A DNA stretch of 20,725 nucleotides from a virus, in UHGV virus genome UHGV-1517735; one strand, 5' to 3'. The notes under the pieces were generated by a model. The model worked only from the letters and a program-made list of their open reading frames with translations. It searched no databases and was not told the DNA's origin. The translations under genes and the position numbers were made by a program. Of the stretch, positions 1 to 15,248 are shown piece after piece. Numbering within the stretch: the first letter of the stretch is position 1; each line of letters opens with the position of its first letter.

Positions 1-48
1 TTAACAGCTAACTCATAGCAAATCATTCCTATTCAGACACTAACTCAA

Positions 49-79
49 CCCTCTGTTTTTACAGAGGGTTTTTGTTTTT
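49..79 (+). terminator. Rho-independent terminator-like hairpin
   Basis: CCCTCTG (49-55) / CAGAGGG (62-68) stem, 6-nt loop, followed by TTTTTGTTTTT. Confidence 0.5.
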
Positions 80-135
80 ATGTATTCATTTCTATTCACT
101 CTATACCATATTTTTCGGCGGTACAGGTGACGGTA

Positions 136-150
136 TTACCTTAAAGGTAT
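136..150. promoter_or_regulatory. Operator-like palindrome TTACC-TTAAA-GGTAT (9/10 to TTACC-N5-GGTAA) upstream of integrase
   Basis: Matches the recurring intergenic palindrome; lies 43 bp upstream of the int start. Confidence 0.4.
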
Positions 151-192
151 ACTCTCATACCGTCATGAAAATGGTTTCTATACGGGTGAATT

Positions 193-1443
193 GTGCTTAC
201 CGATACAAAATTAAAAAACCTCAAGCCGCAGGACAAACTATACAAAGTCTCCGATCGTGACGGGCTGTATGTAGCTGTGCTTACGTCAGGTACGGTCTCG
301 TTTCGCTATGACTACCGTATCAACGGTCGCCGCGAAACACTGGTAATCGGGCAGTATGGGCGTGACGGTATCAGCCTGGCAGAAGCGCGGGAAGAACTGA
401 TTGCTGCAAAGAAGCTGCTTAAAGCAGGCCAGTCACCGGCTGCGGCTAAACGTGACGGTATCAAAAAGATTCGTGGTGCCGAGACGTTTGCGGTACATAC
501 CGACAGTTATATGAAACACGTCATCCTGGCTGACAGTACCCGCGCAATGAAACAGGCGGTGATCGACCGTGACATACTTCCGGTTCTTGGCAATAAAATG
601 ATGGCTGAAATTACCACATCGATGGTTCGTGATTTGTGTGACCGGATTGTCGAACGCGGTGGCCGGGCAACAGCAGTGCAGGCCAGGGAGATCATCAGTA
701 GCGTATACCGTCACGCCAATGACCGTGGTCATGGTTTGTTTAATCCTGCGGCTGACATTAAACCTTCGTCTATCGCCATATTTAAACCACGAGAGCGAAC
801 ACTGACACCAGAAGAAATTGGCCTGTTCTTCCGCACGCTGGATGCCATTGGTGCTATGGGCACTATGAAAATGGCTTTAAAACTGGTGCTTATCACTATG
901 GTTCGTAAGGGCGAATTCACCAATGCAACGTGGGATGAAATAGATTTTAAAAAATGGACATGGACAATTCCTCCAGACCGCATGAAGGGAAGCCGGGCGC
1001 ACGTTATTTACCTGCCTAAACAGGCACAGGATATATTGGTCGGGTTGCAGATGTGCGCTGGTGGAAGTGAATATCTGGTTCCTGGTCGTTACAATTTCCG
1101 GAAGCCATTATCTAATGCCGCGCTGAACTCTCTGATCGACAGAACGGTGAAAATAATAAATGAAGATGGTGAGCATATTCAGGACTTCACTGTACATGAT
1201 ATGCGCCGTACAGCCAGTACGTTGTTGCATGAGGCTGGTTATCCTTCAGACTGGATTGAAAAGGCTCTGGCACATGAGCAGAAAGGTGTGCGCGCCGTAT
1301 ATAACAAAGCGGAATACGCCAGACAGCGCGCCTACATGTTGCAGCAGTGGGCCGATATGATTGATTCATGGATTGACGGGGAGCATACGGATCTGATTCC
1401 GTTCTCCCCGTCGAAGTTTGAGAAGTGGATGGCGGGGGAATAA
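193..1443 (+). CDS. int: Tyrosine site-specific integrase (P4-type, DUF4102-like N-terminal domain)
   Basis: 416-aa ORF, GTG start; N-terminus MLTDTKLKNLKP..DGLY typical of P4-family integrases; C-terminal HDMRRT (HxxR) and VRAVYNKAEY catalytic Tyr region. Confidence 0.93.
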   Translation: MLTDTKLKNLKPQDKLYKVSDRDGLYVAVLTSGTVSFRYDYRINGRRETLVIGQYGRDGISLAEAREELIAAKKLLKAGQSPAAAKRDGIKKIRGAETFAVHTDSYMKHVILADSTRAMKQAVIDRDILPVLGNKMMAEITTSMVRDLCDRIVERGGRATAVQAREIISSVYRHANDRGHGLFNPAADIKPSSIAIFKPRERTLTPEEIGLFFRTLDAIGAMGTMKMALKLVLITMVRKGEFTNATWDEIDFKKWTWTIPPDRMKGSRAHVIYLPKQAQDILVGLQMCAGGSEYLVPGRYNFRKPLSNAALNSLIDRTVKIINEDGEHIQDFTVHDMRRTASTLLHEAGYPSDWIEKALAHEQKGVRAVYNKAEYARQRAYMLQQWADMIDSWIDGEHTDLIPFSPSKFEKWMAGE

Positions 1444-1637
1444 CGTTTAATAGTTCTGCTGATTTTCTTCCATCTCTGCTTCTGCTGCCAGTGATTCAAT
1501 TTTGTTTTCGAATATTGCTGACAGTGTTGCAAATTCAGCATCAGTGACAGCGGGAATTGGAACAAACCTGATCCCGCTGTGTGCAAGCATGTTTGCAGTT
1601 TCAAGGCATTTTCTTAAATCTGCTGGTGATGCCCTGT

Positions 1638-2288
1638 TCATGCAGCACGCTCCCGCCCCTGGTTGTCTGTTGGTGACAGCGGAGCATTGCTGAATGCATT
1701 TGTTAATCCGCCAATATCCAACGCGTATCCAGGGTGTAGTTGCACTGCCGGGTCTTCGCACTGATTACCCCAAACATCGAAGCCATGAGACGTCTGGCGG
1801 GCGAACAGTTCAATGCGAGAAACATCGCCTAATAATTGCACAAGTTTTTCACGAACGATATCTGGCTTTCTTGAATGCTCAAGCCGCGGTGCGGTAAATG
1901 ACTGAACGATCCCTGCATTAATGCGCGTAGGTAGTTTTCCCTTTACCGCAAACAGGCAATCTTCACTATTGGCGCGAGTCATGTGTCCCATACCCATAAC
2001 CAGTTTATCTGGTTGTCGACTACCACATTTTATCCACGTGAAGCCCTTCATCGTCATCAGACGGAATCCCCAGGCTTCAACAACTTTTAGTGCTTCGAGT
2101 GGTTGTGTTGGCACCCACCACATGGCCAACAGACAGTTTTCATCGGCCAAATCCCACACAGGAAGGCGGCAGATATCCAGCACACTCATAACCGGATATT
2201 TAAAACCGGCACCGCGATTACCATCTGCGGCTTTGTCCCGGTATACCCAGGGTGGATCTGCATAGATTAGTGTGTATTTCTTAGTCAT
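1638..2288 (-). CDS. MT-A70 family N6-adenine DNA methyltransferase (orphan, no cognate nuclease seen)
   Basis: 216-aa ORF; IYADPPW catalytic motif near N-terminus and EHSRKP motif; start overlaps upstream gene stop. Confidence 0.85.
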   Translation of the reverse strand: MTKKYTLIYADPPWVYRDKAADGNRGAGFKYPVMSVLDICRLPVWDLADENCLLAMWWVPTQPLEALKVVEAWGFRLMTMKGFTWIKCGSRQPDKLVMGMGHMTRANSEDCLFAVKGKLPTRINAGIVQSFTAPRLEHSRKPDIVREKLVQLLGDVSRIELFARQTSHGFDVWGNQCEDPAVQLHPGYALDIGGLTNAFSNAPLSPTDNQGRERAA

Positions 2289-2580
2289 AAACCACCCCGC
2301 AACATCCTATACCGCTATAGTCTCCACGGCGAAGGCCGTTACCTTTTGTGATACATTGGTCCCTGCGAACCGCGATCCTTGCACGCTCAACATCACCAGA
2401 AGCAACATCCATACACTGAAGCCAAAGGTGAGCGGCAATGCGGAACTGCCCTTTTTTCTCTCTTTCAATCGCGCGTTTTTCGATCTCTATCGCCGCAGGA
2501 GTAACGGCGACAATCTTTGACGGACTGCGCATTGAAACCTTATTCATGTGATATTTTTCAAGTCGGCTTAACTTTCTCAC
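2281..2580 (-). CDS. Hypothetical protein (99 aa)
   Basis: ORF with GTG start preceded by AGAGAGGG; stop overlaps the methyltransferase start by 8 nt; no recognisable domain. Confidence 0.5.
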   Translation of the reverse strand: MRKLSRLEKYHMNKVSMRSPSKIVAVTPAAIEIEKRAIEREKKGQFRIAAHLWLQCMDVASGDVERARIAVRRDQCITKGNGLRRGDYSGIGCCGVVYD

Positions 2581-2693
2581 TTAATCCAACCCTCTCTGAA
2601 AATTAATGCCAGCAGATAAAGCCATGCTGAAACAGAGGCCAGGAATAAGTACCATCCTGACCATTTGATCCAGTGCCTTAGCAGCGCACTCAT
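2577..2693 (-). CDS. Small hydrophobic peptide (38 aa, single predicted transmembrane helix)
   Basis: Hand-translated, below ORF-track cutoff: MSALLRHWIKWSGWYLFLASVSAWLYLLALIFREGWIK; ATG overlaps the excisionase stop (ATGA) and its TGA overlaps the GTG start of the next gene (GTGA). Confidence 0.4.
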   Translation of the reverse strand: MSALLRHWIKWSGWYLFLASVSAWLYLLALIFREGWIK

Positions 2694-2938
2694 GCAGCGT
2701 TGCTCACGGGACGATATACACGTTGCTGAACAGGAGGTTTTTTACCCTGGAACTCTGCCGGGCTTGCTGCCTGACGTTCATCAAGCCAACGCTCAACTTC
2801 GTCACGGTTCCATGCGCAGCGTTTGTCAGTGATATACCAGCGTTTAGGAAATTCCCCTGCGCGCTCCATACGGTCGATAGTGCTCCATGACAGTGGCACC
2901 ACCGCCAGGAGTTCCTTCTTACCTAATGCACCTTTCAT
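2690..2938 (-). CDS. AlpA/Xis-family excisionase or DNA-binding regulator
   Basis: 82-aa ORF; LSWSTIDRMERAGEFPKRWYI...CAWNRDEVERWL fits the AlpA/Xis HTH pattern; RBS AGAGAGG; sits between int and the recombination genes. Confidence 0.75.
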   Translation of the reverse strand: MKGALGKKELLAVVPLSWSTIDRMERAGEFPKRWYITDKRCAWNRDEVERWLDERQAASPAEFQGKKPPVQQRVYRPVSNAA

Positions 2939-2987
2939 AAATACCTCTCTTGGTTGCAGTGCGGCGCGTGTGGCACCGCGGTGGTGG

Positions 2988-3869
2988 TTACATAGATGTT
3001 TCGTTTAATTCTTCCCGACGAACGCTGTAAACGTCGGTGGCTTTTGCCAGCAGTTCGTCATCATCTGAAAGTTTTTGTGCAATGTATTTGTAAGCCTTAT
3101 CCAGTTCGGAGACGGTGCTGTAATTCATCGCTGCGCTGGTAAAGGCCATCAGCATTTCTTCTGGATCACGGCTATCCGCTTTACGCGTTTGCTCATCATG
3201 CTTTTTCACTGGTTTAGCGTTGATCAGACTGTTCATTCCCGCAGCAGTAGTCGTTTGCGGAGTAATGTCTCGCTCAACGCGCGGTGCCGTTTCCTGTAAT
3301 TCGTCAGGGGTGTAAACACCGAGAAGCACATCAGGAGCGTGCAGGCGAGCCCATCGTTTCGTGCAAAGATAGGCAAGCTGCTGGCGCGGATCCTGTTCCC
3401 ACAATGGAGAGTTACGCACTCCGGCTTGCGCCATACTGATGGTAAGCTCACGGGGTTCTGCTTCTCCTTTAAGAACTGCTGACACAGTTACCGTCAGATT
3501 CGGTGATTTATCTGTTTTGCCGTTAACATTCGACCAGTCACCGCTCCAGCGATAATTCAGGCGTGTCGCTAGCAGGCTGGAAGAGGATACGACCGCGTTT
3601 ACCAACTGTGCTTCGTAGCCTAACGTTCCGTTTACCACATGCGTTTTCTGCGCCACGGCGAAAGGGTTCATTCCCCACTGTGCCGCCTGCATGGTCACCG
3701 CCAGACAATCGGCAGGTTTGCCTTCAAGATGTTTCGGTACAGTCGCTTTGCTTTGTGACATCAACTCCGCGAAACGCACCAGTTGATTCATGCCCTCCGG
3801 GCTGAAGATTGCCGCAGCAGTACCTACAGTTGCGCCTGGTTGTGATGTGATTGCGATATCATTGCTCAT
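2988..3869 (-). CDS. recT: RecT-family single-strand annealing recombinase
   Basis: 293-aa ORF; RecT-like core; ERDITP segment resembles phage annealing proteins; 4-nt overlap (ATGA) with the upstream exonuclease gene. Confidence 0.8.
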   Translation of the reverse strand: MSNDIAITSQPGATVGTAAAIFSPEGMNQLVRFAELMSQSKATVPKHLEGKPADCLAVTMQAAQWGMNPFAVAQKTHVVNGTLGYEAQLVNAVVSSSSLLATRLNYRWSGDWSNVNGKTDKSPNLTVTVSAVLKGEAEPRELTISMAQAGVRNSPLWEQDPRQQLAYLCTKRWARLHAPDVLLGVYTPDELQETAPRVERDITPQTTTAAGMNSLINAKPVKKHDEQTRKADSRDPEEMLMAFTSAAMNYSTVSELDKAYKYIAQKLSDDDELLAKATDVYSVRREELNETSM

Positions 3870-4687
3870 ACGTACATATCCTGTTTACGTGCCCAGTCAG
3901 GGCGTTTAATAATTTCCACGCCGCCCCATTCATCGTTGATGCGGCATTCGTGATAGGTATTCAGATCCCGGCGGAACAGAGCGTGCCCGGCATCGACATC
4001 CGGCGCATCCAGCTCGAACACGCGTACCGGATACCGACCACAATCAATGCTTTCGCTCACGGCAAGAAAGAAAAAACCATGCGACTGACCAGTAACCCTC
4101 ATCGCTCCTTCGCGGTACATTGCGTCCTGCACGTGGTAGCGGAATTCCTCGATGTGGCGTGCAAAACGATCCATATCTGCAACCTTTTTCACGTCGACGA
4201 TCACGTTGTGCTCGTTCAGCCATTTGTCTGGACGAATGCGGCACAACTCACCAGTCTCTTCATCATTCCAGTACATTGATGCTTCGCAGTAACCAGGTGC
4301 TTCCAGCATCCAGCGTGCCGCCGGGTGAGCCATTGCGCTATCACGCATCAGCTCCAGTTTCCGCCACTGCTCGGCATCAAGTACCGTAATCCCCATATCC
4401 GCTACATCACGAAGAAATGCTTCTTCGTCAGCTTTACCTTGTTTCGTCCGACGATCGAACTTCGGTGAAACAATGAAGCGTTTGTCGAATTCTCCAGGCT
4501 CCAGAAGCAGACAGTGCAATGCGGTTCCCATATCCAGTGCAGACTTTTTCTCTTCGTCTTCTGGTGCTGCCTGAACCCATTTAAGAAGCGCCGGATTCTT
4601 GGCAACCATGTCCAGTTGCGACTTACTCACGCCGTCACCGGCGTGGTAGTCTTCGTTGCTGATGTCGAAATAAATTCCCGGTTTCAT
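3866..4687 (-). CDS. PD-(D/E)XK exonuclease, RecE / exodeoxyribonuclease VIII-like partner of RecT
   Basis: 273-aa ORF; RIRPDKW...IVDVKKV matches the PD-(D/E)XK D..(D/E)xK arrangement; N-terminus GIYFDISNEDYH typical of the family; directly upstream of recT. Confidence 0.75.
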   Translation of the reverse strand: MKPGIYFDISNEDYHAGDGVSKSQLDMVAKNPALLKWVQAAPEDEEKKSALDMGTALHCLLLEPGEFDKRFIVSPKFDRRTKQGKADEEAFLRDVADMGITVLDAEQWRKLELMRDSAMAHPAARWMLEAPGYCEASMYWNDEETGELCRIRPDKWLNEHNVIVDVKKVADMDRFARHIEEFRYHVQDAMYREGAMRVTGQSHGFFFLAVSESIDCGRYPVRVFELDAPDVDAGHALFRRDLNTYHECRINDEWGGVEIIKRPDWARKQDMYV

Positions 4688-4983
4688 GCCGCGTCCCTCT
4701 GCCCATCAAGCTGATCCGCCAGATCCCAGCGGGCGATAATTGCCATTGCCTCGCGCCGGTAGGAATCCATCAGTTCTTCGAACTCAGGGCTGTCTTTAGC
4801 AGCCTCCAGCACTTCCTGACGAACGCCTTTGCCTGTTACAACGTCGAAAGTTGAGGACAGTTGATGAAGTCGGATGCTCTCAATCAGTTCAACTTGTCGG
4901 TCATATAGCTGTTCTGACAGGCGGTAGTCCTTGTCGAATGCCAGCATGATTTTTTGAAGATTTTTCTGCTGATTAACGTTCAT
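4684..4983 (-). CDS. Hypothetical protein (99 aa) upstream of the exonuclease
   Basis: ORF with ATG at 4983 preceded by GGGAGGG; overlaps the exonuclease start (ATGA); no recognisable domain. Confidence 0.6.
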   Translation of the reverse strand: MNVNQQKNLQKIMLAFDKDYRLSEQLYDRQVELIESIRLHQLSSTFDVVTGKGVRQEVLEAAKDSPEFEELMDSYRREAMAIIARWDLADQLDGQRDAA

Positions 4984-4985
4984 TA

Positions 4986-5138
4986 TCAGCCCTCCCATAT
5001 CTCGTTATCGTTGGCCACATCGCGAGCTTCTTTGCTGACGAAAGCCCACTTAATGCCTTCCTGTAAGGTGCGGAACTTCCAGCTCATGAATCCGCATGCA
5101 GTAACGCAGTACCAACCGTTGATGATTTTCCACTGCAT
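4986..5138 (-). CDS. Small hypothetical protein (50 aa), first gene of the leftward operon
   Basis: Hand-translated, below ORF-track cutoff: MQWKIINGWYCVTACGFMSWKFRTLQEGIKWAFVSKEARDVANDNEIWEG; its stop is 2 nt from the next start. Confidence 0.35.
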   Translation of the reverse strand: MQWKIINGWYCVTACGFMSWKFRTLQEGIKWAFVSKEARDVANDNEIWEG

Positions 5139-5157
5139 AACTTGTTACCTCGGTCTG

Positions 5158-5234
5158 TTACCGTTGAGGTAATAATTATGCGTATTTGGTTTGATGTCAA
5201 TAGATATGAGTTAAAAAAATTACCCATTAGGTAA
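5158..5234 (-). promoter_or_regulatory. PL-like leftward early promoter with two flanking operators
   Basis: Operators TTACC-GTTGA-GGTAA (5158-5172) and TTACC-CATTA-GGTAA (5220-5234); minus-strand -35 TTGACA at 5195-5200; AT-rich -10 region around 5172-5180. Confidence 0.55.
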
Positions 5235-5243
5235 TAGTATAGG

Positions 5244-5270
5244 CAATAAAAAAGCCGCCAGAAGGCGGCT
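5244..5270 (-). terminator. Rho-independent terminator downstream of the repressor gene
   Basis: AGCCGCC / GGCGGCT stem with AGAA loop, followed on the minus strand by TTTTTTATT. Confidence 0.6.
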
Positions 5271-5291
5271 TACTTACTGAAAAATATGATT

Positions 5292-5876
5292 TTATTGTTT
5301 GTTTTTTTCGTTCTGGTTGATGACAAATTCAATGTAACTTTCGATCTTTGCTTTCTCAGTTTCGGGTAACAATGCGTAGCGCGAGCGGTCATAGTTGATG
5401 GTCGCAGGGTCGTGCGGGTGAATCAGTAATTCATAGCCGTGACGCCCGAATGCGGATGCAACATTCTCCAGGGTGGAAATGGAAACGCTGACCTCATTGT
5501 TTAACAGGCGGCTGATTGTCACCTGGGCGACGCCGGATGCGCGGTGAAGTTTTCCCTGTGTTGAAAGGTCGCGGCTTTCGCTCATCCAGCGTTCCAGGTT
5601 GTGAGCCGCCAGCTGACCTATATCGCTCGGGCCGACAGGCTGAAAACCTTCCTGAGAAAGCGAGCGATCGATATCAAGCCAGTTACGTGGTTTATTGGCG
5701 GCAGCTTCAATTTTTCGCGCAACCTGGTCGCCGATAACCTTCTTGCCAAGAGCCCAGCGGTTTACCAGATTTGCCTGAGTTCCAAGTTTTTCTGCCATCC
5801 GCGTCTGAACACCATTGAATTCACGGTCGATCAAGTCGTTGAGATTTTGCCTGCGGACGTCCTGGATACTTTTCAT
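5292..5876 (-). CDS. CI-like prophage repressor with two HTH domains and no LexA-like peptidase domain
   Basis: 194-aa ORF divergent from the Cro-like gene; N-terminal HTH (QTRMAEKLGTQANLVNRWALGKK) and a second HTH-like segment (SGVAQVTISRLLNNEVSVSISTLENVASAFG); no S24 peptidase signature. Confidence 0.8.
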   Translation of the reverse strand: MKSIQDVRRQNLNDLIDREFNGVQTRMAEKLGTQANLVNRWALGKKVIGDQVARKIEAAANKPRNWLDIDRSLSQEGFQPVGPSDIGQLAAHNLERWMSESRDLSTQGKLHRASGVAQVTISRLLNNEVSVSISTLENVASAFGRHGYELLIHPHDPATINYDRSRYALLPETEKAKIESYIEFVINQNEKNKQ

Positions 5877-5931
5877 TTTCTGGAAAATCGCCTCATATAT
5901 GAATCAGTAGATGATTCAATTTAAAGCAATA

Positions 5932-6005
5932 TTACCCAACAGGTAAATGCACCTCATAGGTAACTATCCTTGATTTTTGTTACCTTATGGGTGAATATTT
6001 ATTAT
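5932..6005. promoter_or_regulatory. OR-like operator cluster (three sites) with PR-like promoter
   Basis: TTACC-CAACA-GGTAA (5932-5946), GCACC-TCATA-GGTAA (5949-5963), TTACC-TTATG-GGTGA (5980-5994); -35 TTGTTA (5977-5982), 17-bp spacer, -10 TATTAT (6000-6005) so the third operator sits inside the promoter. Confidence 0.6.
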
Positions 6006-6030
6006 CTGAAATAAATATCAGGCAATAGCT

Positions 6031-6261
6031 ATGAGCGATAACGGACATTTCGATTTCAAAAAGCACTGGCTTGCACTTACTCCGGATGAGCGTGAAGCCT
6101 TCGCACAGGAAGCCGGAACGACGAGTCACTATATCCAGACTCACTTAACAGGTAAGCGCAAAATGCCAGGTAAAGTATTGATGAATGGGCTTTTTAAAGC
6201 CTGTAAAACAAGACAATGGCTGCGCTCAAAAGCAGAACTGGCATACTTCTTCTACTCATGA
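6031..6261 (+). CDS. Cro-like HTH regulator
   Basis: 76-aa ORF divergent from the repressor; HTH-like segment EAFAQEAGTTSHYIQTHLTGKRKMP. Confidence 0.65.
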   Translation: MSDNGHFDFKKHWLALTPDEREAFAQEAGTTSHYIQTHLTGKRKMPGKVLMNGLFKACKTRQWLRSKAELAYFFYS

Positions 6262-6282
6262 TATCCAGCTACAACCCTCTGT

Positions 6283-6307
6283 AGACCGCCACCCGGCGGT
6301 CTTTTCA
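6283..6307 (+). terminator. Rho-independent terminator after the Cro-like gene (tR1-like position)
   Basis: 8-bp stem AGACCGCC / GGCGGTCT with ACCC loop, followed by TTTCAT. Confidence 0.65.
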
Positions 6308-6316
6308 TATCTATTC

Positions 6317-6331
6317 GTACCTCAAAGGTAA
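6317..6331. promoter_or_regulatory. Operator-like palindrome GTACC-TCAAA-GGTAA (9/10)
   Basis: Immediately downstream of the post-cro terminator, upstream of the replication genes. Confidence 0.4.
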
Positions 6332-6409
6332 TAAAAAACCAAATCTGGTTGATCAAATTTTCCAATTGTGCAAAATAGCCAATATCAATAACAAAAAGGG
6401 GCGGAAAAA

Positions 6410-6622
6410 TTGAAGATAGTAACCAGAATGGAGGCCGCAAAAGCCGGGTTAAATCGCTATTTCACAGGAAAGCGGTGCCGTCACGGCCATCTCTCTGAAA
6501 GGTATGTTCTGAACGGAACATGTGTTGAATGTGCAATGAATAGCGCCAACCGCCATCGTAATGAATTTGCTTGTGCACTAAAGAGTGCAAGAGGGGAAAC
6601 CTATGGCAAGCAGCTGGATTAA
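6410..6622 (+). CDS. Hypothetical Cys/His-rich small protein (cII position); start uncertain (TTG 6410 or ATG 6428)
   Basis: 70-aa ORF; CRHGH...CVEC...C pattern; AAGGGG upstream of the TTG; overlaps the replication gene start; no similarity to lambda CII noticed. Confidence 0.45.
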   Translation: MKIVTRMEAAKAGLNRYFTGKRCRHGHLSERYVLNGTCVECAMNSANRHRNEFACALKSARGETYGKQLD

Positions 6623-7427
6623 GGTTGAAGTTATCACTCCTGATAAACCTGAAATTTTTCAGATAGCAGAAATTCTGGGTATTGATCCAGATGCTGTTCT
6701 TGGAAAGCTGGTTCGTATATGGGCATGGGCTGACCAGCAAACAATAGACGGTAACGCTGGTAGCGTTACAAAAGGAGTACTTGATAGACTCGCTTTTATT
6801 ACAGGATTTGCTGACGCCCTCATTAGCGTCGGATGGCTTGCTTATCATGACGGCAAACTAATTCTTCCAAACTTTGAGCGACATAATGGAGAATCATCGA
6901 AAAAACGTGCACTTACGAATAGAAGAGTGGCAGAGCATCGAAAACGAGTAACGCAAAAAGTAACGCCAACAGCGTTACAAAAGGAGTTACCAGAGGAAGA
7001 GGAAGATATATATAAAACCCCACACATAGCGCACGTGCGCGAGGGTGCTCCGACCAGTGAAGCGAACAGTACGCCGTTGCAGGTGGCAGAACCTGAATTT
7101 CTGGATGGCCTGAGTGAACCCATCGGGAAATTTCCGATGACAGATGGCTGGCTACCGTCGCCAGATTTTCGGCGGCGTGCTGCGCTGTGGGGAACGGCCC
7201 TGCCGGAACCGGAATTTACACCTGCTGAACTTGCTGCATTCCGGGATTACTGGATGGCTGAGGGCAAAGTGTTCACGCAGGTTCAGTGGGAACAAAAATT
7301 CGCCAGGCACGTAAATCATATCAGGGGAAAATCAAAAAATGCCGGGAAAAGCGATGAGCTTGACTGGAATAACACTGACTGGATAGAAGGGGTGTGGGAT
7401 GAAATCAACTCCAGAACTTCTCAATGA
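6603..7427 (+). CDS. Replication initiation / replisome organiser protein with C-terminal DnaT-like domain
   Basis: ATG at 6603 with RBS GAGGGG; C-terminal GKFPMTDGWLPSPDFRRRAALWGTALPEPEFTPAELAAFRDYWMAEGKVFTQVQWEQKFARH closely parallels the E. coli DnaT C-terminus; iteron-like repeats inside the gene. Confidence 0.8.
   Translation: MASSWIKVEVITPDKPEIFQIAEILGIDPDAVLGKLVRIWAWADQQTIDGNAGSVTKGVLDRLAFITGFADALISVGWLAYHDGKLILPNFERHNGESSKKRALTNRRVAEHRKRVTQKVTPTALQKELPEEEEDIYKTPHIAHVREGAPTSEANSTPLQVAEPEFLDGLSEPIGKFPMTDGWLPSPDFRRRAALWGTALPEPEFTPAELAAFRDYWMAEGKVFTQVQWEQKFARHVNHIRGKSKNAGKSDELDWNNTDWIEGVWDEINSRTSQ
6748..7040. repeat. Putative replication origin: duplicated iteron-like element inside the initiator gene
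   Basis: GTAACGC-N5-GCGTTAC-AAAAGGAGT at 6751-6780 and 6960-6990; extra GTAACGC at 6948-6954; AT-rich GATATATATAAAA and 12-bp palindrome GCGCACGTGCGC (7029-7040) follow. Confidence 0.45.
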
Positions 7428-8175
7428 GTACGATCGCTTACGTGAGCATGGTGTTGCTGTGCATGAAGAGCGGCGTGACAGCAATGGCAAAAAGGAGCAG
7501 GTTGCTAGAATTTTCAATGAACTATTTGTCCAGTTACAGGCTGCATTTCCTGCAAGCGTTTCGACCATAAGGGAGCAGAACAAACTTAATGAATTCCGTA
7601 AGCAATGGATGCTTGCGTTTCTGGAGAATGGGATCACTACAATGGAACAGGTTAACGCTGGTATGCGCCACGCCCGCGCCAGTGAATCTCCGTTCTGGCC
7701 GTCGCCAGGGCAATTCATCAAGTGGTGCAAAGACAGCAAGATGGTTCTTGGCGTCACCATTGACGATGTGATGGCGGAGTTTCACCGGTACAGCAAGGAA
7801 AAAAGTTTATATCCTGGTGGTCCCGAAAGATTCCCGTGGCGGCATCCGGTTATGTACTGGGTCGTATGTGATACCCGTCGTGCAATGTATCAGCGCCAGC
7901 TTAGCGAGAGTGAGGTTGAGAAACACGCGCGCAGGCTGCTCGATGATTGGGCGAAAAAGGTGGCTTCCGGACAGCAGATACCCGATCCGGTGATCAGCAT
8001 ACAGGCAAAGCCAGAGCCCATGAGTACACCTCCGGACACAGGGAGAGACGTTTACCATCCACCAGGGCGAAGTTTCGGGTGCATGCCTAACGCCGCCACC
8101 CTTGGGGGAATAACACCGGCGCAGTGGCTGATGGAGGAATACAGGCGGGGAAAGGCGGCAGGATTTATCAAGTAA
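7399..8175 (+). CDS. Lambda P-like replication protein (helicase loader)
   Basis: 258-aa ORF; AFPASVSTIREQNKLNEFRKQWMLAFLENGITTMEQVNAGMRHARASESPFWPSPGQFIKWCK closely matches the conserved core of lambda P as recalled. Confidence 0.88.
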   Translation: MKSTPELLNEYDRLREHGVAVHEERRDSNGKKEQVARIFNELFVQLQAAFPASVSTIREQNKLNEFRKQWMLAFLENGITTMEQVNAGMRHARASESPFWPSPGQFIKWCKDSKMVLGVTIDDVMAEFHRYSKEKSLYPGGPERFPWRHPVMYWVVCDTRRAMYQRQLSESEVEKHARRLLDDWAKKVASGQQIPDPVISIQAKPEPMSTPPDTGRDVYHPPGRSFGCMPNAATLGGITPAQWLMEEYRRGKAAGFIK

Positions 8176-8180
8176 TACCA

Positions 8181-8200
8181 GCGCGATAGCGCATTTTTTT
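8181..8200 (+). terminator. Weak terminator-like hairpin with T7 tract after the P-like gene
   Basis: GCGC GATA GCGC followed by ATTTTTTT. Confidence 0.35.
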
Positions 8201-8212
8201 ACGCCTCGATAA

Positions 8213-8289
8213 TTACCTGTTAGGTAACAAAATATTATAAACTCTATTGATTTCATGTCTTATGTGGTTTTTAATTACCTCAGAGGTAA
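8213..8289 (+). promoter_or_regulatory. Operator-flanked promoter for the downstream operon
   Basis: TTACC-TGTTA-GGTAA (8213-8227) and TTACC-TCAGA-GGTAA (8275-8289); -35 TTGATT (8247-8252), 17-bp spacer, -10 TTTAAT (8270-8275); same layout as the PL-like promoter. Confidence 0.55.
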
Positions 8290-8292
8290 ATC

Positions 8293-8637
8293 ATGAGAAA
8301 ACAGATACAGGCTCTTGGTCGACTCAAAACAGGCCAGATGAACAAAACTGAATCTGCGTATTGCCAGCACCTTGAGCTGCGTAAACGTGCAGGGGAAATC
8401 GCCTGGTATCGATTCGAGGGTATCAAGCTGCGGTTAGCTGACAACACGTTCTATACGCCAGATTTCGCTGTGATGCTCGCCACCGGAGAGATGGAACTGC
8501 ACGAAGTGAAAGGTTTCTGGACCGACGACGCCAGGGTGAAAACCAAAGTCGCCGCAGATCAGTATCCGTTCCGAATCATCGGGGTAACGGTTAAACCAAA
8601 GAAAGCAGGTGGTGGCTGGAACATCGAAGAGTTCTGA
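8293..8637 (+). CDS. DUF1064-like phage protein (putative PD-(D/E)XK-fold nuclease/resolvase)
   Basis: 114-aa ORF; YTPDFAV...ELHEVKG...KTKVAADQYP pattern as recalled for DUF1064; RBS GAGGT. Confidence 0.7.
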   Translation: MRKQIQALGRLKTGQMNKTESAYCQHLELRKRAGEIAWYRFEGIKLRLADNTFYTPDFAVMLATGEMELHEVKGFWTDDARVKTKVAADQYPFRIIGVTVKPKKAGGGWNIEEF

Positions 8638-8698
8638 ATCGACGATCTTTTTAGTTATCAATGTAATCAATAAGTTATGTGGATAAGCGAGGGTAAAG

Positions 8699-9262
8699 AT
8701 GGAAAGTAATATCAAAGGGTTAGTTGCCGCCGGGCATGAGATGGCTTCGGAACTGAAAGCAGAATGTGGTGCCGTTGATATGCGCAGTGTGGCAAAGCTG
8801 ATCAGCGATTTGGCAACGCAACTGGAAGTGCAACTGGTGCGTGCTAATGCGCTGGCCGAAGACCACCAGAGAGCGACTGAGTCAATTAAGCAGGCTGATT
8901 CGGCTGTTAAGTTGGCGCACGAGAAGTTTTCGGTGCTGGCGGCGGAGAATGCGGGGCTGAAGTCTGGCGCAATGGACGAAATCAAGGTTATCAACCGTGG
9001 AGGGCAGGCATATTGCGTAAAAGATGGAGTGCAAGTTAATCCCATGTATGCAAGAGGGTGGAATGACTATCGCGCAAAGTCTCTGCAATCAGACACCCCG
9101 GCCACCGACGCATTCCTTGCTGAAATTGAACGCAAAGCAATCCGCAAGTTCATTAACAGCATTGAACACATCCTGCGTGACAAGTTGTCACCGTATGACA
9201 CCGAAGAGATGCTTGAAGCTATGCGTATTTTTCTGGAAGAACAGGGAGGTGAGCAAAAATGA
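8699..9262 (+). CDS. Hypothetical protein (187 aa), first gene of accessory operon
   Basis: RBS GCGAGGG before ATG 8699; coiled-coil-like N-terminal half; no recognisable domain. Confidence 0.7.
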   Translation: MESNIKGLVAAGHEMASELKAECGAVDMRSVAKLISDLATQLEVQLVRANALAEDHQRATESIKQADSAVKLAHEKFSVLAAENAGLKSGAMDEIKVINRGGQAYCVKDGVQVNPMYARGWNDYRAKSLQSDTPATDAFLAEIERKAIRKFINSIEHILRDKLSPYDTEEMLEAMRIFLEEQGGEQK

Positions 9263-9564
9263 CGATCACAAAACAACGGGTAGAAGAAATCATATCCCGC
9301 ATTGAAATGTATGGGCATGGCGCAGGGTATACCGCCGAAGAGGTTTATGACCTGGCTGTACTGGCGCTGAATTTATCAAATATCGCAAACCTGAAGCGAT
9401 ACGAGCTTGATATGGGTGGTTGTGACTCGTGCGGTCAGGATTGTGGCGCTGACATGACTGAAGATTCTGATGGCGATTATGTCCTGTTTGATGACGTAGT
9501 TAAGTTGTTTGAGTTTGATACATTCGAAAGCCCAGCAAAGGAGGCAACCAGTGAGCGAAATTAA
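9259..9564 (+). CDS. Hypothetical acidic protein (101 aa) with CDSCGQDC motif
   Basis: ATG overlaps upstream stop (ATGA); no recognisable domain. Confidence 0.6.
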   Translation: MTITKQRVEEIISRIEMYGHGAGYTAEEVYDLAVLALNLSNIANLKRYELDMGGCDSCGQDCGADMTEDSDGDYVLFDDVVKLFEFDTFESPAKEATSERN

Positions 9565-10249
9565 TTACCAGGCACTGCGTGAGGCGGCGGAACGTGCAAT
9601 TCCGGCAATGGAACGCCTGTTAATGTTGCTAGTTGATGATGCTCTGATAAGTGAACAGGAACTTAAAGATTACGGTGTGGATATTGATGCGCTCAACGCC
9701 TTCAAATTTCTGGCCGGACCAGAAACCGTGCTGGCGCTTCTGGATGAACGGGAAAGAAACCAGCAATACATCAAACGCCGCGACCAGGAGAACGAGGAGA
9801 TTGCGCTAACGGTAGGGAAACTGCGTGTTGAGCTTGAAGCAGCAAAATCAAAACTCAACGAGCAGCGTGAATATTACGAGGGAGTAATCGCGGATGGAAG
9901 TAAGCGTATTGCTGAACTGGAGAAAAGCGAAGAGCAACTCATCAATGAGCGTGACCATGCTGAGTCTGCTTTAGATGATATGTACTTTGCAGCAACCGGT
10001 AACAGGCCGGAGTGGAGCAACTGGTTCGGCTTTTCAGATGCTGTCGATGCCGTGGTTGACAGAATTGCTGATTTAGAAGCTAAACAGTCATCGCCAGTAG
10101 TGCCGGAAGGACTGGTTAAAGCAGTGCGCTTCTATGAGCAGGTTAAGCGTGAAAATCCGCCAGTCGAAACCGGAGCATGGAAAGACGCTGTTGACTGGGT
10201 GCTCAAAGAGGCCTGCCAGGTTGTAAACATTGGTACCAAAGGAGATTGA
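9551..10249 (+). CDS. Hypothetical coiled-coil protein (232 aa)
   Basis: GTG at 9551 preceded by AAGGAGG; long heptad-like central region; C-terminal PVVPE module shared with the next gene. Confidence 0.6.
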   Translation: MSEINYQALREAAERAIPAMERLLMLLVDDALISEQELKDYGVDIDALNAFKFLAGPETVLALLDERERNQQYIKRRDQENEEIALTVGKLRVELEAAKSKLNEQREYYEGVIADGSKRIAELEKSEEQLINERDHAESALDDMYFAATGNRPEWSNWFGFSDAVDAVVDRIADLEAKQSSPVVPEGLVKAVRFYEQVKRENPPVETGAWKDAVDWVLKEACQVVNIGTKGD

Positions 10250-10250
10250 T

Positions 10251-10631
10251 ATGAGCACTTTTACCGACAAAGAACTGATTAAAGAAATCAAAGAGCGCAT
10301 AGGCAGTCTGGACGTGCGAGACGATATTGAGCGCCGTGCTTATGAAATTGCTCTGGCATCACTGGAAGCAGAGCCGGTGGCGTGGCTTCATTCAGACAAT
10401 GGCTTAGGTATTCCGGCAATAACGAGGAGTAAAAACATTGCTGACAGTTGGTTATCAAAGGGTTGGTATGTTCAGCCGCTATATATAGCCAAGCCAGTGC
10501 CAGTAGTACCGGAAGAAAAACCAATGCCGAACCCTCTTAGCATGTACGCGGTTGATGCTGTTGCCGCTATTGCAGAGGTGAGAGGCTGGAACGCCTGCCG
10601 TGCCGTCATGCTTCAGGGAGATAAATCATGA
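10251..10631 (+). CDS. Hypothetical protein (126 aa), shares C-terminal PVVPE module with upstream gene
   Basis: ATG 10251 preceded by AAGGAG; AKPVPVVPEE parallels AKQSSPVVPEG in the upstream protein. Confidence 0.65.
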   Translation: MSTFTDKELIKEIKERIGSLDVRDDIERRAYEIALASLEAEPVAWLHSDNGLGIPAITRSKNIADSWLSKGWYVQPLYIAKPVPVVPEEKPMPNPLSMYAVDAVAAIAEVRGWNACRAVMLQGDKS

Positions 10632-11245
10632 TTAATCGTACCAAGCTGGAGCACATCCTCGAATATGCCAGACAGCAGAGGCGCTTTGGTCAGCATTGCA
10701 AAATTCCGCCAGGAGATATGGTTGAAATCGTGGAAATGGCCATGCGTAAGGCTGGCAACCCTCATGTAACCCCGGCTCGCCTGCCTGGTGGTTTCACCAT
10801 TGAGGATGCGAAGGCGTTACATGAAGACCTGGTACGCAGCCACATAAGCCAGGCTTTAAGTGGCGAAAATATGAAAAAGAACGATCGCGATGCTGATTTG
10901 CGCTGGATTCATGGCGTAATAGTTCAGGCAGCGTGGTTTGTAAAAGCATCACTGGAGCAAAATGCGCTATCGGGCAACTCTCCGGTAACTCCGGATGGTT
11001 GGGTTATAGTGCCGAAGAAACTAACCGCTGAGAACGGCGCTAAGGGTGTGCTATCCGGTGAATTTTCAGAAACTACGTTTATAAGCTGCCCGGAATGCTT
11101 TGGCGATGATGATTGCGATACCTGTGACGGGAGCGGACGAATTGAAATTAAAGTACCAGTCACGTGGACGACCATAAAATCCATCTGGGATAAAGGTATT
11201 GCGCATTTTGCAGCAAAACCGCCGCAGGAGGTTAACCGTGGCTAA
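10628..11245 (+). CDS. Hypothetical protein with DnaJ-type zinc-finger motif (205 aa)
   Basis: CPECFGDDDCDTCDGSG fits the CxxCxG...CxxCxGxG pattern of DnaJ cysteine-rich domains; start overlaps upstream stop. Confidence 0.7.
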   Translation: MINRTKLEHILEYARQQRRFGQHCKIPPGDMVEIVEMAMRKAGNPHVTPARLPGGFTIEDAKALHEDLVRSHISQALSGENMKKNDRDADLRWIHGVIVQAAWFVKASLEQNALSGNSPVTPDGWVIVPKKLTAENGAKGVLSGEFSETTFISCPECFGDDDCDTCDGSGRIEIKVPVTWTTIKSIWDKGIAHFAAKPPQEVNRG

Positions 11246-11519
11246 CCTGCAACTTGCCGTCAAAGGTGAATACTTCGATGCCATGATTCGCGGGGAGAAA
11301 ACGGAAGAGTATCGCCTGTGTAATGACTACTGGAAAAAGCGCCTCGTTAACCGTAAGCATGACCGCCTGATTATCACAAAGGGATATCCGAAGCGCGACG
11401 ATTCCAGCCGCAGAATAGACGTCCCGTATGAAGGGTATGAAATCAAGACAATCACACATCCGCACTTCGGCGATAAACCGGTAAAGGTGTTCGCGATAAA
11501 GGTAAATATTGATGGCTAA
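11238..11519 (+). CDS. ASCH-domain-like protein (93 aa)
   Basis: GTG at 11238 preceded by AGGAGG; LQLAVKGEYFDAMIRGEKTEEYR resembles the ASCH N-terminal strand-turn motif. Confidence 0.6.
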   Translation: MANLQLAVKGEYFDAMIRGEKTEEYRLCNDYWKKRLVNRKHDRLIITKGYPKRDDSSRRIDVPYEGYEIKTITHPHFGDKPVKVFAIKVNIDG

Positions 11520-11850
11520 ATCAGCAGCAGAGCGCAAAGCCGCTCAGAGAGCCAGACAAGCTGCATCTGGTGTGCGTAAACTGGAGATTGTGCTTGATGC
11601 TCAGGAAATTGAAATGCTGGAGCGTAACTGTGCCACGCGTCGCCCCGGGCGTGCGCCTTACGAATTTGGTGAGTATATAGCGTTACTGATCCGCCAGGAT
11701 GATGCACGCGTGCGCGGGCGTATAAAATCGATCAGCAGAAAACGTTGCGGTAAGTGCGGAGAGAGAGTTCCAGTTAATTCATGCCCGTGTAATGGTGACT
11801 CGCAATGCTGGGTGACTAAAGGCTGGCATGAAACGAAATTAATAGTGTGA
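11512..11850 (+). CDS. Cys-rich zinc-finger protein (112 aa), candidate late-gene regulator
   Basis: Basic N-terminal segment; C-terminal CGKCG...CPCNGDSQC; last gene before the terminator and operators upstream of terminase. Confidence 0.6.
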   Translation: MAKSAAERKAAQRARQAASGVRKLEIVLDAQEIEMLERNCATRRPGRAPYEFGEYIALLIRQDDARVRGRIKSISRKRCGKCGERVPVNSCPCNGDSQCWVTKGWHETKLIV

Positions 11851-11858
11851 CATGTCAC
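11847..11858. repeat. Perfect 12-bp palindrome GTGACATGTCAC (copy 1)
   Basis: Overlaps the stop of the 11512-11850 gene; second copy at 14111-14122. Confidence 0.5.
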
Positions 11859-11897
11859 GAGTAGATTATGCATGATGAATTTGATGGTTTTGAATAC

Positions 11898-11925
11898 TGC
11901 CGCCAACTATGGCGGCTTTATTTTG
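11898..11925 (+). terminator. Rho-independent terminator upstream of terminase genes (tR-prime-like position)
   Basis: GCCGCC / GGCGGC stem with AACTAT loop, followed by TTTATTTTG. Confidence 0.65.
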
Positions 11926-11934
11926 CATGGTACT

Positions 11935-11967
11935 ATTACCACAACGGTAACTATTACCACGGTGGTT
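11935..11967. promoter_or_regulatory. Two operator-like palindromes immediately upstream of the terminase small subunit
   Basis: TTACC-ACAAC-GGTAA (11935-11949) and TTACC-ACGGT-GGTTA (11953-11967), the second abutting the start codon. Confidence 0.5.
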
Positions 11968-12564
11968 ATGATGCCTGCTGAACCTAAAACCTATAAACGC
12001 AAATCAACGCAATTTAAGCCACTAACAGCAATGCAGGAGGCTTATTGCCAGTCATACATCAAAACGCCTGAAAACCAGACTCAGGCAGCGATTAATGCAG
12101 GATTCTCCCCAAATACAGCGGCAGTTAAAGCCAGTGTCATGATGCGCGATGAACGCATTCAAAAACGGATTGCCGAGTTGATGGAGGAGCGCAACAAACG
12201 AATGCGCGTCAGTGCTGATTACGTTCTCATGCGCCTGGTGGAGATCGACCAGATGGACGTGATCGACATCCTCAACGACGATGGGAGCCTTAAGCCAATC
12301 CGCGAGTGGCCGAAAATCTGGCGCACTACGCTTAGTGGCTTTGATCTGTCATCGACCATCATGAACATGAACGAGGATTCGATAGAGACAATCCTCAAAA
12401 AAATTAAATGGCCTGACAAGGTGAAGAACCTCGAACTGATTGGTAAGCACGTCGACGTCAACGCATTCAAAGAACGCCTGGATGTTAATGTGAATGTGAC
12501 AATTGCTGATCGCATAGCAGCAGCCAGGAAGCGACTCAAAGAACGTCAGGATGGCAATCAGTGA
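11968..12564 (+). CDS. Terminase small subunit (start uncertain; upstream in-frame ATGs rejected because they span the terminator)
   Basis: HTH-like segment TQAAINAGFSPNTAAVKASVMMRDERIQKRI typical of small terminase subunits; directly upstream of and overlapping the large subunit. Confidence 0.7.
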   Translation: MMPAEPKTYKRKSTQFKPLTAMQEAYCQSYIKTPENQTQAAINAGFSPNTAAVKASVMMRDERIQKRIAELMEERNKRMRVSADYVLMRLVEIDQMDVIDILNDDGSLKPIREWPKIWRTTLSGFDLSSTIMNMNEDSIETILKKIKWPDKVKNLELIGKHVDVNAFKERLDVNVNVTIADRIAAARKRLKERQDGNQ

Positions 12565-14036: not shown

Positions 14037-14077
14037 TCCGCTTGAGGGGATAATGTCGTTGATATCCTCTGATGAGG

Positions 14078-14106
14078 ATAAAACAAAGCCAGCTCATCGG
14101 CTGGCT
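14078..14106 (-). terminator. Rho-independent terminator downstream of the minus-strand cargo ORF
   Basis: AGCCAGC / GCTGGCT stem with 6-nt loop, followed on the minus strand by TTTGTTTTAT. Confidence 0.5.
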
Positions 14107-14109
14107 GTT

Positions 14110-14123
14110 TGTGACATGTCACA
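14110..14123. repeat. 14-bp palindrome TGTGACATGTCACA (copy 2 of GTGACATGTCAC)
   Basis: Identical 12-bp core to 11847-11858; lies between the cargo ORF stop and its terminator. Confidence 0.5.
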
Positions 14124-14126
14124 GCG

Positions 14127-14546
14127 TTACTTAATGGCATCAAATCCAGCGTTGATGGCTTCCGCAATATTGATGGCACTTGTTTTATCGAATTGCCTAT
14201 TCTGAATAAGCGCCGCATGCAGGCATTGTAACTTCATGTTGTATAAGTGTTCGCTCATGTAATCATTATCACTTTTTGTTTTAGCGCAAACAGAGCGAGA
14301 AATATCAAACACATCGCCTTTTTCCATTTCAGAACGTTGTGCTGTTATCCAGTCATGGAACGTAACGCTAGTACCATGGTCTTCGCTAAGAGTTAACCCG
14401 GCCAGTCCCTCACTCTGAATTACTTCGTAATGCATTTCATTACCAGCAAAAACGCCATAAAAAATGCAGTCTTCAGCCTGAACGATACGAGAATATTTTA
14501 ATGGCCATTCATTTAGATACTTAGCCAACATATCAATTGTCTTCAT
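14127..14546 (-). CDS. Hypothetical cargo/moron protein (139 aa), opposite strand to flanking late genes
   Basis: ORF with RBS AAGGTGA; AT-rich codon usage unlike neighbours; own terminator; no domain recognised, no predicted TM segment. Confidence 0.7.
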   Translation of the reverse strand: MKTIDMLAKYLNEWPLKYSRIVQAEDCIFYGVFAGNEMHYEVIQSEGLAGLTLSEDHGTSVTFHDWITAQRSEMEKGDVFDISRSVCAKTKSDNDYMSEHLYNMKLQCLHAALIQNRQFDKTSAINIAEAINAGFDAIK

Positions 14547-14552
14547 GATCTC

Positions 14553-14580
14553 ACCTTAAAAAAATGCCCGGCGAACCGGG
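14553..14580 (-). terminator. Terminator-like hairpin immediately upstream of the cargo ORF RBS
   Basis: GCCCGG / CCGGGC stem with TTCG-type loop followed on the minus strand by ATTTTTTT, then AAGGTGAGATC-ATG. Confidence 0.55.
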
Positions 14581-14657
14581 CGAACTGGAAGCAATGAGTT
14601 ATGCCTTCCGTGGTTGTACTGGTTTACAGCATGAAGTCATCGCAATGGCGTCCTGCT

Positions 14658-14701
14658 GTAAAAAGGGCGGTGATAGTTCTTCAAGGGAAACCATCACCGC
14701 C
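14658..14701 (-). terminator. Possible terminator hairpin downstream of the tRNA
   Basis: 9-bp stem GGCGGTGAT / ATCACCGCC with 18-nt loop, followed on the minus strand by CTTTTTA. Confidence 0.35.
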
Positions 14702-14744
14702 AAGCCCCTGGAACTTCTGGCATCACGGTCCTTAGGCGTGATTC

Positions 14745-14821
14745 TGGCGTGGCATGCAGGATTCGAACCTGCGACCAACCGCTTAGAAGGCGGTTGCTCT
14801 GTCCAACTGAGCTAATGCCAC
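14745..14821 (-). tRNA. tRNA-Arg, anticodon UCU (argU-like, phage-borne)
   Basis: 77-nt cloverleaf read on the minus strand: acceptor GTGGCAT/ATGCCAC, D-stem GCTC/GAGC, anticodon stem ACCGC/GCGGT with loop CUUCUAA, T-stem GCAGG/CCTGC with TTCGAAT loop, encoded CCA. Confidence 0.92.
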
Positions 14822-15143
14822 AACGCTGAGAGCACTTAGCCTGTTAAGGCGCCACACTTTGTCGCGGCTCCATAAATGCTCTCATCGTTGTACCCTCGTC
14901 TCTTCCGAGGCGTCACACCGAATCGCCGGGATGGTGAATCCCCGTGCGCGGAATAAAACCGCTCGACTTGCACATTCCGGCTACCTGGTTCGTTTGCCCG
15001 AGCAAGGGAGGGTGCCCCTTAAACGTATCCAGACCGCTATCGGCGCATGTGCCAGACGCCGTACTGCTCAAAATAAAAGCTCACTCCACCTGTTCAATTT
15101 AACGACAAGCCAGTCAGGTTAGTAACCGGAATGAACTCTTTGG

Positions 15144-15158
15144 TTACCTGAAAGGTAA
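15144..15158. promoter_or_regulatory. Operator-like palindrome TTACC-TGAAA-GGTAA upstream of the head module
   Basis: Perfect match to the recurring palindrome; intergenic. Confidence 0.5.
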
Positions 15159-15248
15159 TAATTTGTGCGTTAAATGTCAACTACCTACGATAAATAAATC
15201 ATATGTGGTTAAATTGGTAATAATTTAATTGCGTACGGAGTCATTGAT

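Follow-up and report, generated by a model that had tools for sequence, protein, structure and literature searches.

The DNA analysed here, a stretch of 20,725 nucleotides from virus genome UHGV-1517735 (the window), carries a short palindrome, TTACC-N5-GGTAA, at 12 intergenic positions, whose probable role as the operator of the prophage repressor Rep is the subject of this study. By its sequence the window is a Uetakevirus prophage of the ε15/phiV10/SPC32H group of temperate podophages; over positions 4900-8400 it shares 99.6% identity with Escherichia phage vB_EcoP_ZX5 and 97-98% with phiV10 and TL-2011b. The left part contains int, followed by a leftward early operon (RecE/RecT, AlpA-like, PerC-like and Dam methylase genes). 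In the middle lie the divergent genes of the repressor and of a small Cro-like protein, the replication genes and an operon starting at 8293, and the right part is composed of terS/terL, one leftward gene and the head genes.

A palindrome confined to non-coding DNA

The exact motif, TTACCNNNNNGGTAA (TTACC-N5-GGTAA), occurs seven times in the whole window, at 5158, 5220, 5932, 8213, 8275, 11936 and 15144. The analytic expectation is 0.02 (20725 x 4^-10), and 100 dinucleotide shuffles gave 0.00. Four sites deviate by one mismatch (136, GGTAT; 5980, GGTGA; 6317, GTACC; 11954, GGTTA) and a single intergenic site by two (5949, GCACC). The remaining two-mismatch matches (n=8) are all located in coding DNA, and their number is consistent with the chance expectation of 5.6. 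A weight matrix of 21 base pairs (bp), trained solely on sites of the phages ε15, Tyrion and BUCT711 and applied with a threshold of 10 bits, returned the same 12 sites with scores of 11.2-23.9 bits, compared with 0.23 in Markov shuffles; the best match elsewhere (6.4 bits) falls within the terL coding sequence. For positions 1-20350, in which non-coding DNA amounts to 1,661 bases (8.2%), all 12 sites lie in this non-coding fraction (P ~9e-14).

The initial annotation of this DNA, made by reading the sequence, had listed seven perfect and five degenerate sites, all of them non-coding, against a chance expectation of about 0.02 perfect matches. The exact and mismatch searches, the analytic calculation and the weight-matrix comparison with shuffled and coding sequence, which it had proposed as a check, all agree with this account, and only two coordinates (11935 and 11953, each off by one) had to be corrected to 11936 and 11954. 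A full-text literature search for ATTACC/GGTAAT yielded nothing relevant.

Putative operators at the promoters of the early and late units

The sites and the promoters predicted around them are listed in Table 1. Among the predicted promoters, PL, PR, P_E, P_int, the one before terS and the leftward one towards tRNA-Arg all share sequence with an operator at the -10 or at the start. The operons end in a terminator and restart at an operator-bearing promoter.

Table 1. Coordinates of the operators, predicted promoters and associated genes in the window.
Feature	Positions	Strand	Description
O_int TTACCTTAAAGGTAT	136-150	.	19.5 bits; GGTAT, the right half, continues into TATACT, the -10 of int (148-153)
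O_L proximal	5158-5172	.	exact match; centre at ~+1 of PL, the leftward early promoter
PL core promoter	5172-5200	-	TTGACA-17-AATTAT; 10/12 consensus matches; -35 conserved in all lineages
O_L distal	5220-5234	.	exact match; centre at ~-62 relative to PL; 62-bp spacing to O_L proximal
Rep, immunity repressor	5292-5876	-	194 amino acids; PDB 5D50 homology; 100% identical to ZX5 ORF21
Rep domains			N-terminal Cro/YdaS-type helix-turn-helix (HTH); middle HTH_3-like dimerisation; C-terminal tetramerisation/Ant-binding
O_R3	5932-5946	.	exact match and weight matrix; operator closest to rep
O_R2 GCACCTCATAGGTAA	5949-5963	.	two mismatches, 11.3 bits; 17 bp from O_R3
PR candidates	5970-5975 or 5977-6005		TTGATT (5970-5975), or TTGTTA-17-TATTAT (5977-6005)
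O_R1 TTACCTTATGGGTGA	5980-5994	.	one mismatch (GGTGA); inside the PR core promoter
Cro-like small HTH protein	6031-6261	+	76 amino acids; λ-Cro-like HTH AGTTSHYIQTHLTGKRKMP; phrog_35 'transcriptional repressor', E 5.6e-13
O_D GTACCTCAAAGGTAA	6317-6331	.	one mismatch (GTACC); ahead of the replication genes
O_E distal	8213-8227	.	exact match; centred near -62 of the 8.2-kb promoter
P_E core promoter	8247-8275	+	TTGATT-17-TTTAAT; sequence reading; PL-like layout in all five lineages
O_E proximal	8275-8289	.	exact match; centred near +1 of P_E
Intrinsic terminator	11899-11916	+	closes the early-right operon, directly before the terS operators
Candidate extended -10, terminase operon	11928-11936	+	TGgTACTAT; sequence reading; ends on the first T of O_F1
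O_F1	11936-11950	.	exact match; upstream of terS; ε15 counterpart (12-27) annotated 'repressor'
O_F2 TTACCACGGTGGTTA	11954-11968	.	one mismatch, 11.2 bits; 18 bp from O_F1, 2 bp before the terS ATG (11971)
tRNA-Arg(UCU)	14745-14821	-	ARAGORN; Rfam 73 bits
O_G	15144-15158	.	exact match; between the tRNA-Arg unit and the head operon; ε15 counterpart (2931-2947) annotated 'repressor'
Candidate leftward promoter	15152-15180	-	TTGACA-17-TACCTT; sequence reading; -10 is the operator half-site
Rightward head promoter	15202-15214	+	TATGTGGTT element and extended -10-like TGgTTAAAT; invariant block in five lineages; putative function

PL and the 8.2-kb promoter P_E share one order of parts: a terminator, the distal operator, ~19 A/T-rich bp, a -35 (TTGACA/TTGATT), 17 bp, the -10 and the proximal operator. 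The -10 of PL (AATTAT, 5177-5172 on the minus strand) ends on the first T of O_L proximal, the last T of the P_E -10 is likewise the first T of O_E proximal, and the ATG at 8293 has its Shine-Dalgarno sequence (GAGGT) in the right half of O_E proximal. The placement of the two operator centres near -62 and +1, about six helical turns apart, is conserved across the lineages; at PL the spacing is 62 bp in the window, ε15, SPC32H and Tyrion, and 63 bp in BUCT711. Beside PL, further isolated half-sites are present at 5132-5152 (cagaccgaGGTAAcaag on the minus strand, which is transcribed); ε15, SPC32H and BUCT711 have a complete third PL operator there, just before the start codon of the first gene. 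A minus-strand promoter inside P_E (AAGACA-16-TATAAT, 8261-8234) was also noticed; it is not conserved in the other lineages and was treated as a chance occurrence.

The three operators between rep and the Cro-like gene, spaced 17 and 31 bp, cover PR/PRM. The degenerate form of O_R2 (GCACC) is shared by Tyrion, and a perfect site occupies this position in ε15, SPC32H and BUCT711. O_D lies between the cro terminator (6283-6302) and a conserved -35-like TTGATC (6349-6354), 17 bp from the latter; it occurs in Tyrion and BUCT711 and is absent in ε15 and SPC32H. At int, the GGTAT deviation is kept in all five lineages, since the right half of the operator merges there into the -10, and in ε15 it forms TATAAT.

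At the late promoters, the TG and TACTAT of the terS extended -10 are conserved in ε15, SPC32H and Tyrion. The arrangement ATTGACA-N16-TTACC at O_G is conserved in four lineages with a variable N16, and TGGTTAAATTGGTAA (15206-15220) constitutes a half-operator exactly 62 bp from O_G. The leftward promoter overlapping O_G probably drives tRNA-Arg, which is followed by a strong terminator with a 14-bp stem (14701-14666, minus strand). This tRNA gene is shared by ZX5, SPC32H and BUCT711 and missing from ε15 and Tyrion; it overlaps a mechanically called open reading frame (14564-14815, plus strand) that is a hypothetical protein in the ZX5 annotation. Between the tRNA and O_G lies a non-coding block of ~240 bp (~14830-15070; e.g. 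CCTCGTCTCTTCCGAGG and GGACCGCTNCGGCACATGTGCCATATGCCGTAC), conserved in all five lineages including the tRNA-less ones. No Rfam family matched this block, and no convincing structure emerged from RNAalifold or z-scores for either strand.

The positions in Table 1 accord with earlier statements that three sites lie between the divergent repressor and Cro-like genes (5932, 5949 and 5980), that two flank the leftward promoter (TTGACA-17-AATTAT, 5200-5172) and that the others precede the int, replication, 8293, terminase and head units. The site at 15144 does stand in front of the head module, as had been said, but it probably also controls the leftward promoter towards the tRNA-Arg gene, which had been missed.

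Several of these promoters contain a second element, TATGTGGTT (quasi-palindrome AWCCATATRTGGTT), found in the window at 8261-8269, 15202-15210 and, in its perfect version AACCAAATCTGGTT, at 6337-6350. Elsewhere it occurs in ZX5 (2469 and 5899) and in ε15 (2990, 24753 and 35955), and in the middle, head, tail-fibre and lysis promoters it follows the operator at a distance of 46-58 bp. The 8-mer AACCACAT, the reverse complement of ATGTGGTT and the core of TATGTGGTT, is intergenic in 3/3 ZX5 copies; the generic palindrome AACCA-N4-TGGTT showed no significant enrichment at up to two mismatches. The element may be the site of a late regulator. The last gene before the terS operators (11509-11850, plus strand) encodes a conserved Cys-rich protein (CGKCG...CPC...GDS.CW) that matches phrog_536 'transcriptional regulator' and no Pfam family; because of its gene position and zinc-finger-like motif, we regard it as a candidate late-gene activator.

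Conservation of the sites and of the repressor

The same motif is dispersed through related phages, with 11 exact and 4 one-mismatch sites in ε15 (0.6 expected) and 10 exact and 4 one-mismatch sites in ZX5. Further sites were found in SPC32H, Tyrion and the Klebsiella phage BUCT711, and the positions are orthologous. In the GenBank/RefSeq record of ε15 (AY150271 / NC_004775) the motif, ATTACC-N5-GGTAAT, is labelled 'protein_bind: repressor (lysogeny)' before terS, the head gene gp3, the tail fibre and gp43 and at three places in the PL region. The terS, gp3, PL and gp43 positions are orthologous to those described here, and the tail-fibre locus is situated outside the window. The three O_R sites, the second gp43-promoter site and the int site are not annotated in that record, and in the phiV10 record the stretch covering roughly window positions 1-11850 is annotated with terminators only. 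The window differs from ε15 by an additional operator downstream of the cro terminator (6317), by the lack of the third PL operator and by a degenerate O_R2 (GCACC).

Pairwise identity among four lineages reaches 96% in the half-sites (ten positions), compared with 52% in the N5 spacer and 64% in the 10-bp flanks. The geometry is retained as well (the 62-bp pairs, the 17/30-31-bp triplet and the 18-bp pair), and so are the apparent defects: GGTAT at int in all lineages, GCACC in O_R2 and GGTGA in O_R1 in the phiV10/Tyrion branch, and GTACC at 6317. This pattern bears on two other explanations of the sites. PL and P_E are clearly one module, so that duplication of promoter modules must have occurred, and the sites outside the immunity region might be inert copies left by this process, with only the immunity-region sites being functional. 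We consider this very improbable, because the half-sites are ~96% identical at every class of site, against 52-64% for spacers and flanks, and individual weak variants are themselves conserved.

Equally improbable, in our estimation, is that the palindromes act as RNA hairpins (attenuator, processing site or terminator) or are recognised by a host factor, a recombinase or the packaging machinery. They are inverted repeats, several of which lie just past terminators and beside start codons, and the terS pair could in principle mark a packaging site. However, the predicted hairpins are weak (-2 to -7 kcal/mol) and without a T-tract, and the deviations that break pairing (GGTGA, GCACC, GTACC, GGTAT and GGTTA) are conserved and never compensated on the opposite arm; on these two grounds the RNA-structure explanation was rejected. 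Moreover, several sites are placed upstream of the -35, outside the transcript of that promoter, leftward and rightward units are both served, and the motif follows the carriers of Rep and the Cro-like protein. It is altered in the Psychrobacter phage pOW20-A and in the Moraxella phage Mcat9, which has another operator variant, and in both cases the proteins are divergent.

Rep is homologous over its full length to SPC32H Rep (PDB 5D50; E 4e-42; residues 1-190 aligned to 2-197), and its C-terminal half aligns to the tetramerisation region of that protein. A family search with Rep matched HTH families only, with no Peptidase_S24 match. The absence of an S24 peptidase domain and the full-length homology to SPC32H Rep (PDB 5D50, 5D4Z), whose genome has the same operator motif and layout, speak against the mechanism of λ CI implied by the earlier term 'CI-like'. 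The notion of a dimeric protein was too simple, since SPC32H Rep is a tetramer disabled by an antirepressor. SPC32H Rep recognises palindromic sites in its tetrameric form, which Ant breaks up (PMC9638917). The Rep protein consists of a DBD, an MDD and a p53-like 'TetDloop' tetramerisation domain (PMC9986798), its DNA-binding pairs come from different dimers, and Ant is a tetrameric antirepressor (PMC9638917; PMC9986798; bioRxiv 2025.11.27.690993).

The overall identity of Rep is 42% to both ε15 gp38 and SPC32H Rep, and 42-78% across the genus. Despite this divergence, the recognition helix (A/Q)NLVNRW does not vary among five lineages (window, ε15, SPC32H, Tyrion and BUCT711), which would explain the unchanged operator half-sites; in PseuP_224 the recognition helix differs and the motif is absent. 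Covariation of the operator with the recognition helix within the genus proved uninformative, as every Uetakevirus examined keeps both unchanged. Rep proteins that are only 42-45% identical (window versus ε15, SPC32H and BUCT711) retain the identical recognition helix and half-sites, and cross-recognition at the operator level is therefore predicted among the Uetakeviruses of E. coli, Salmonella, Enterobacter and Klebsiella. The operator spacers of ε15 type are richer in A/T than those of the window.

Phage ZX5 links this protein to an experiment and to an antirepressor. Its Rep, identical to that of the window, abolished free phage when overexpressed and lowered the endolysin and holin transcripts by 99.97-99.99% (PMC9782041). 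Outside the region corresponding to the window, ZX5 carries an unannotated homologue of Ant (2089-2346, minus strand), upstream of which lies a perfect LexA box, CTGTATATTTATACAG, at 2368-2383; the 'anti-repressor' tested in the ZX5 paper was a different, Bro-N protein (ORF4; PMC9782041).

The left end of the window was also inspected. When the attP core attgagtgggaatgatt, which has been reported for ZX5, phiV10 and ε15, is read as its reverse complement, aatcattcctattcaga (window 21-37) matches its first 9 bases (aatcattcc) and then diverges, suggesting that the window starts at a prophage-host junction beside int. Of 5,426 complete E. coli genomes, 549 (~10%) contain a match to the first 400 bases, which comprise the attachment-site side and the start of int.

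A proposed single repressor acting throughout the prophage

Taking these data together, we propose that the TTACC-N5-GGTAA sites are operators of Rep, a member of the SPC32H/ε15 Rep family, and assign this interpretation a probability of about 0.8. It agrees with the interpretation given in the initial annotation and is supported by the placement of the sites, their conservation in five lineages and the ε15 annotation. We infer that Rep would bind the sites and loop between them, that it would repress also from those that lie only upstream of a promoter, and that it would gate the late operons directly.

Some observations weigh against this proposal. The terS and head promoters show no consensus sigma-70 -35, and hence the start sites there are guesses. 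At 6317, and at 15144 for rightward transcription, the operator stands ~60-70 bp upstream of the likely start, so that a lone repressor would not obviously block RNA polymerase. The effect of Rep overexpression on the ZX5 lysis genes could be indirect. Finally, Rep and the Cro-like protein always occur together, which makes it impossible to separate them by phyletic distribution and to assign the non-immunity sites to one of them by such patterns.

The upstream placement at 6317 and 15144 would fit a scheme in which the immunity sites are Rep operators and the others are mainly sites of the Cro-like protein, or serve positive control from a class I position at ~-62, with the bound protein bringing in RNA polymerase at middle and late promoters in the lytic phase instead of repressing them. 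The Cro-like protein is more conserved than Rep (59-84% versus 42-78% identity across the genus), resembling the half-sites in this respect, and the late promoters, with no good -35 and with the separate conserved TATGTGGTT element, suggest dependence on an activator. We nevertheless find this scheme unlikely. An operator placed over the -10 or +1, as it is at PL, P_E, P_int, terS and the leftward tRNA promoter, is positioned for repression, and the distal sites of PL and P_E are paired with the proximal ones at a fixed 62 bp. In addition, the ε15 annotators assigned the sites to the repressor, and overexpressed Rep shuts down the lysis-gene transcripts (PMC9782041).

If the sites are indeed operators of Rep, two N-terminal HTH domains would act as a pair on each 15-bp palindrome, in which 10 bp separate the centres of the half-sites. 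Since a Rep tetramer has two such DNA-binding pairs, it could hold two operators together, either adjacent ones (17-18 bp; O_R3/O_R2 and terS) or those 62 bp apart (PL and P_E). With the 62-bp spacing, operators at ~-62 and over +1 would hold the core promoter between them as in a clamp. Rep tetramers would occlude the -10 or +1 at most promoters of a lysogen. Because each operon is closed by a terminator and the next one restarts at an operator-bearing promoter, every transcription unit would be silenced independently and directly by Rep, beyond PL and PR. On induction, a small SOS-induced, LexA-controlled Ant, encoded outside the window, would release all operators, and during lytic growth the Cro-like protein probably uses at least the O_R sites.

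The resemblance to λ is confined to part of this system. As with λ CI/Cro, the repressor and cro genes are divergent, three graded operators are present at OR, operators are found at PL, and an OL-OR interaction is possible (over a distance here of ~710 bp). Unlike in λ, an S24 autocleavage domain is missing and induction would proceed through an antirepressor; operators occur also at the int, replication, middle, terminase, head, tRNA, tail and lysis promoters; and no Q-type antiterminator was recognised, each operon being closed by its own terminator. In phage pOW20-A the Cro-like protein is homologous, the N-terminal HTH of the repressor is related, and the operators share the core TACC-N5-GGTA and the adjacent spacing at OR (17 bp). 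This phage differs in having an S24-type CI, the half-sites ATACC/GGTAT and a Q-like antiterminator, and its operators, with 4 exact core matches in 40.8 kb, do not extend beyond the immunity region. The genome-wide spread of operators would therefore be a Uetakevirus feature built on a classical immunity module.

Dispersed sites for one repressor are also a property of mycobacteriophage L5, whose gp71 silences transcription beyond the early promoters by means of many scattered 'stoperators'. The L5 sites are asymmetric 13-mers oriented with transcription, often placed within operons and acting on elongation, whereas the sites in the window are palindromic, strictly intergenic and located at promoters. 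With regard to protein architecture, Rep resembles Rco of the Bacillus plasmid pLS20, which likewise combines an N-terminal HTH with a p53-like tetramerisation domain and is countered by an anti-repressor. For such TetDloop repressors the tetramerisation domain was proposed to mediate DNA looping (PMC9986798). Rco belongs to another replicon, with other operators and another host, and looping by Rep is a proposal only.

A more comprehensive and distinctly tentative version of the proposal, which as a whole we hold to be doubtful, is a 'flat' design. One tetrameric looping repressor would clamp every unit (~15 operators at not less than 9 promoters, including int, tRNA, terminase, head, tail and lysis) by the -62/+1 arrangement, and a single antirepressor would release them all, with the order of expression coming from the AWCCATATRTGGTT/TATGTGGTT element of the middle and late promoters. 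As the comparison with pOW20-A suggests, the classical module might have spread through the genome after the loss of Q-type late control.

The idea of phage-wide repressor operators is already known, since it was made for ε15, the type phage of the genus, in whose record the same sites are labelled as repressor-binding, and for this reason no new question is opened here. The structure of Rep from the sister phage SPC32H has likewise been determined and the protein characterised. What is new is annotation, namely an operator map for the phiV10-type lineage, which is lacking in database records; a complete repressor regulon had been correctly recovered by reading the sequence without tools. Such a map may be of use in engineering phiV10 or SPC32H reporter phages and, given the common half-sites, in predicting cross-immunity among ε15-like phages. 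It also describes a temperate-phage design unlike that of λ, in which operons are insulated by terminators and each restarts at a promoter bearing an operator of its own.

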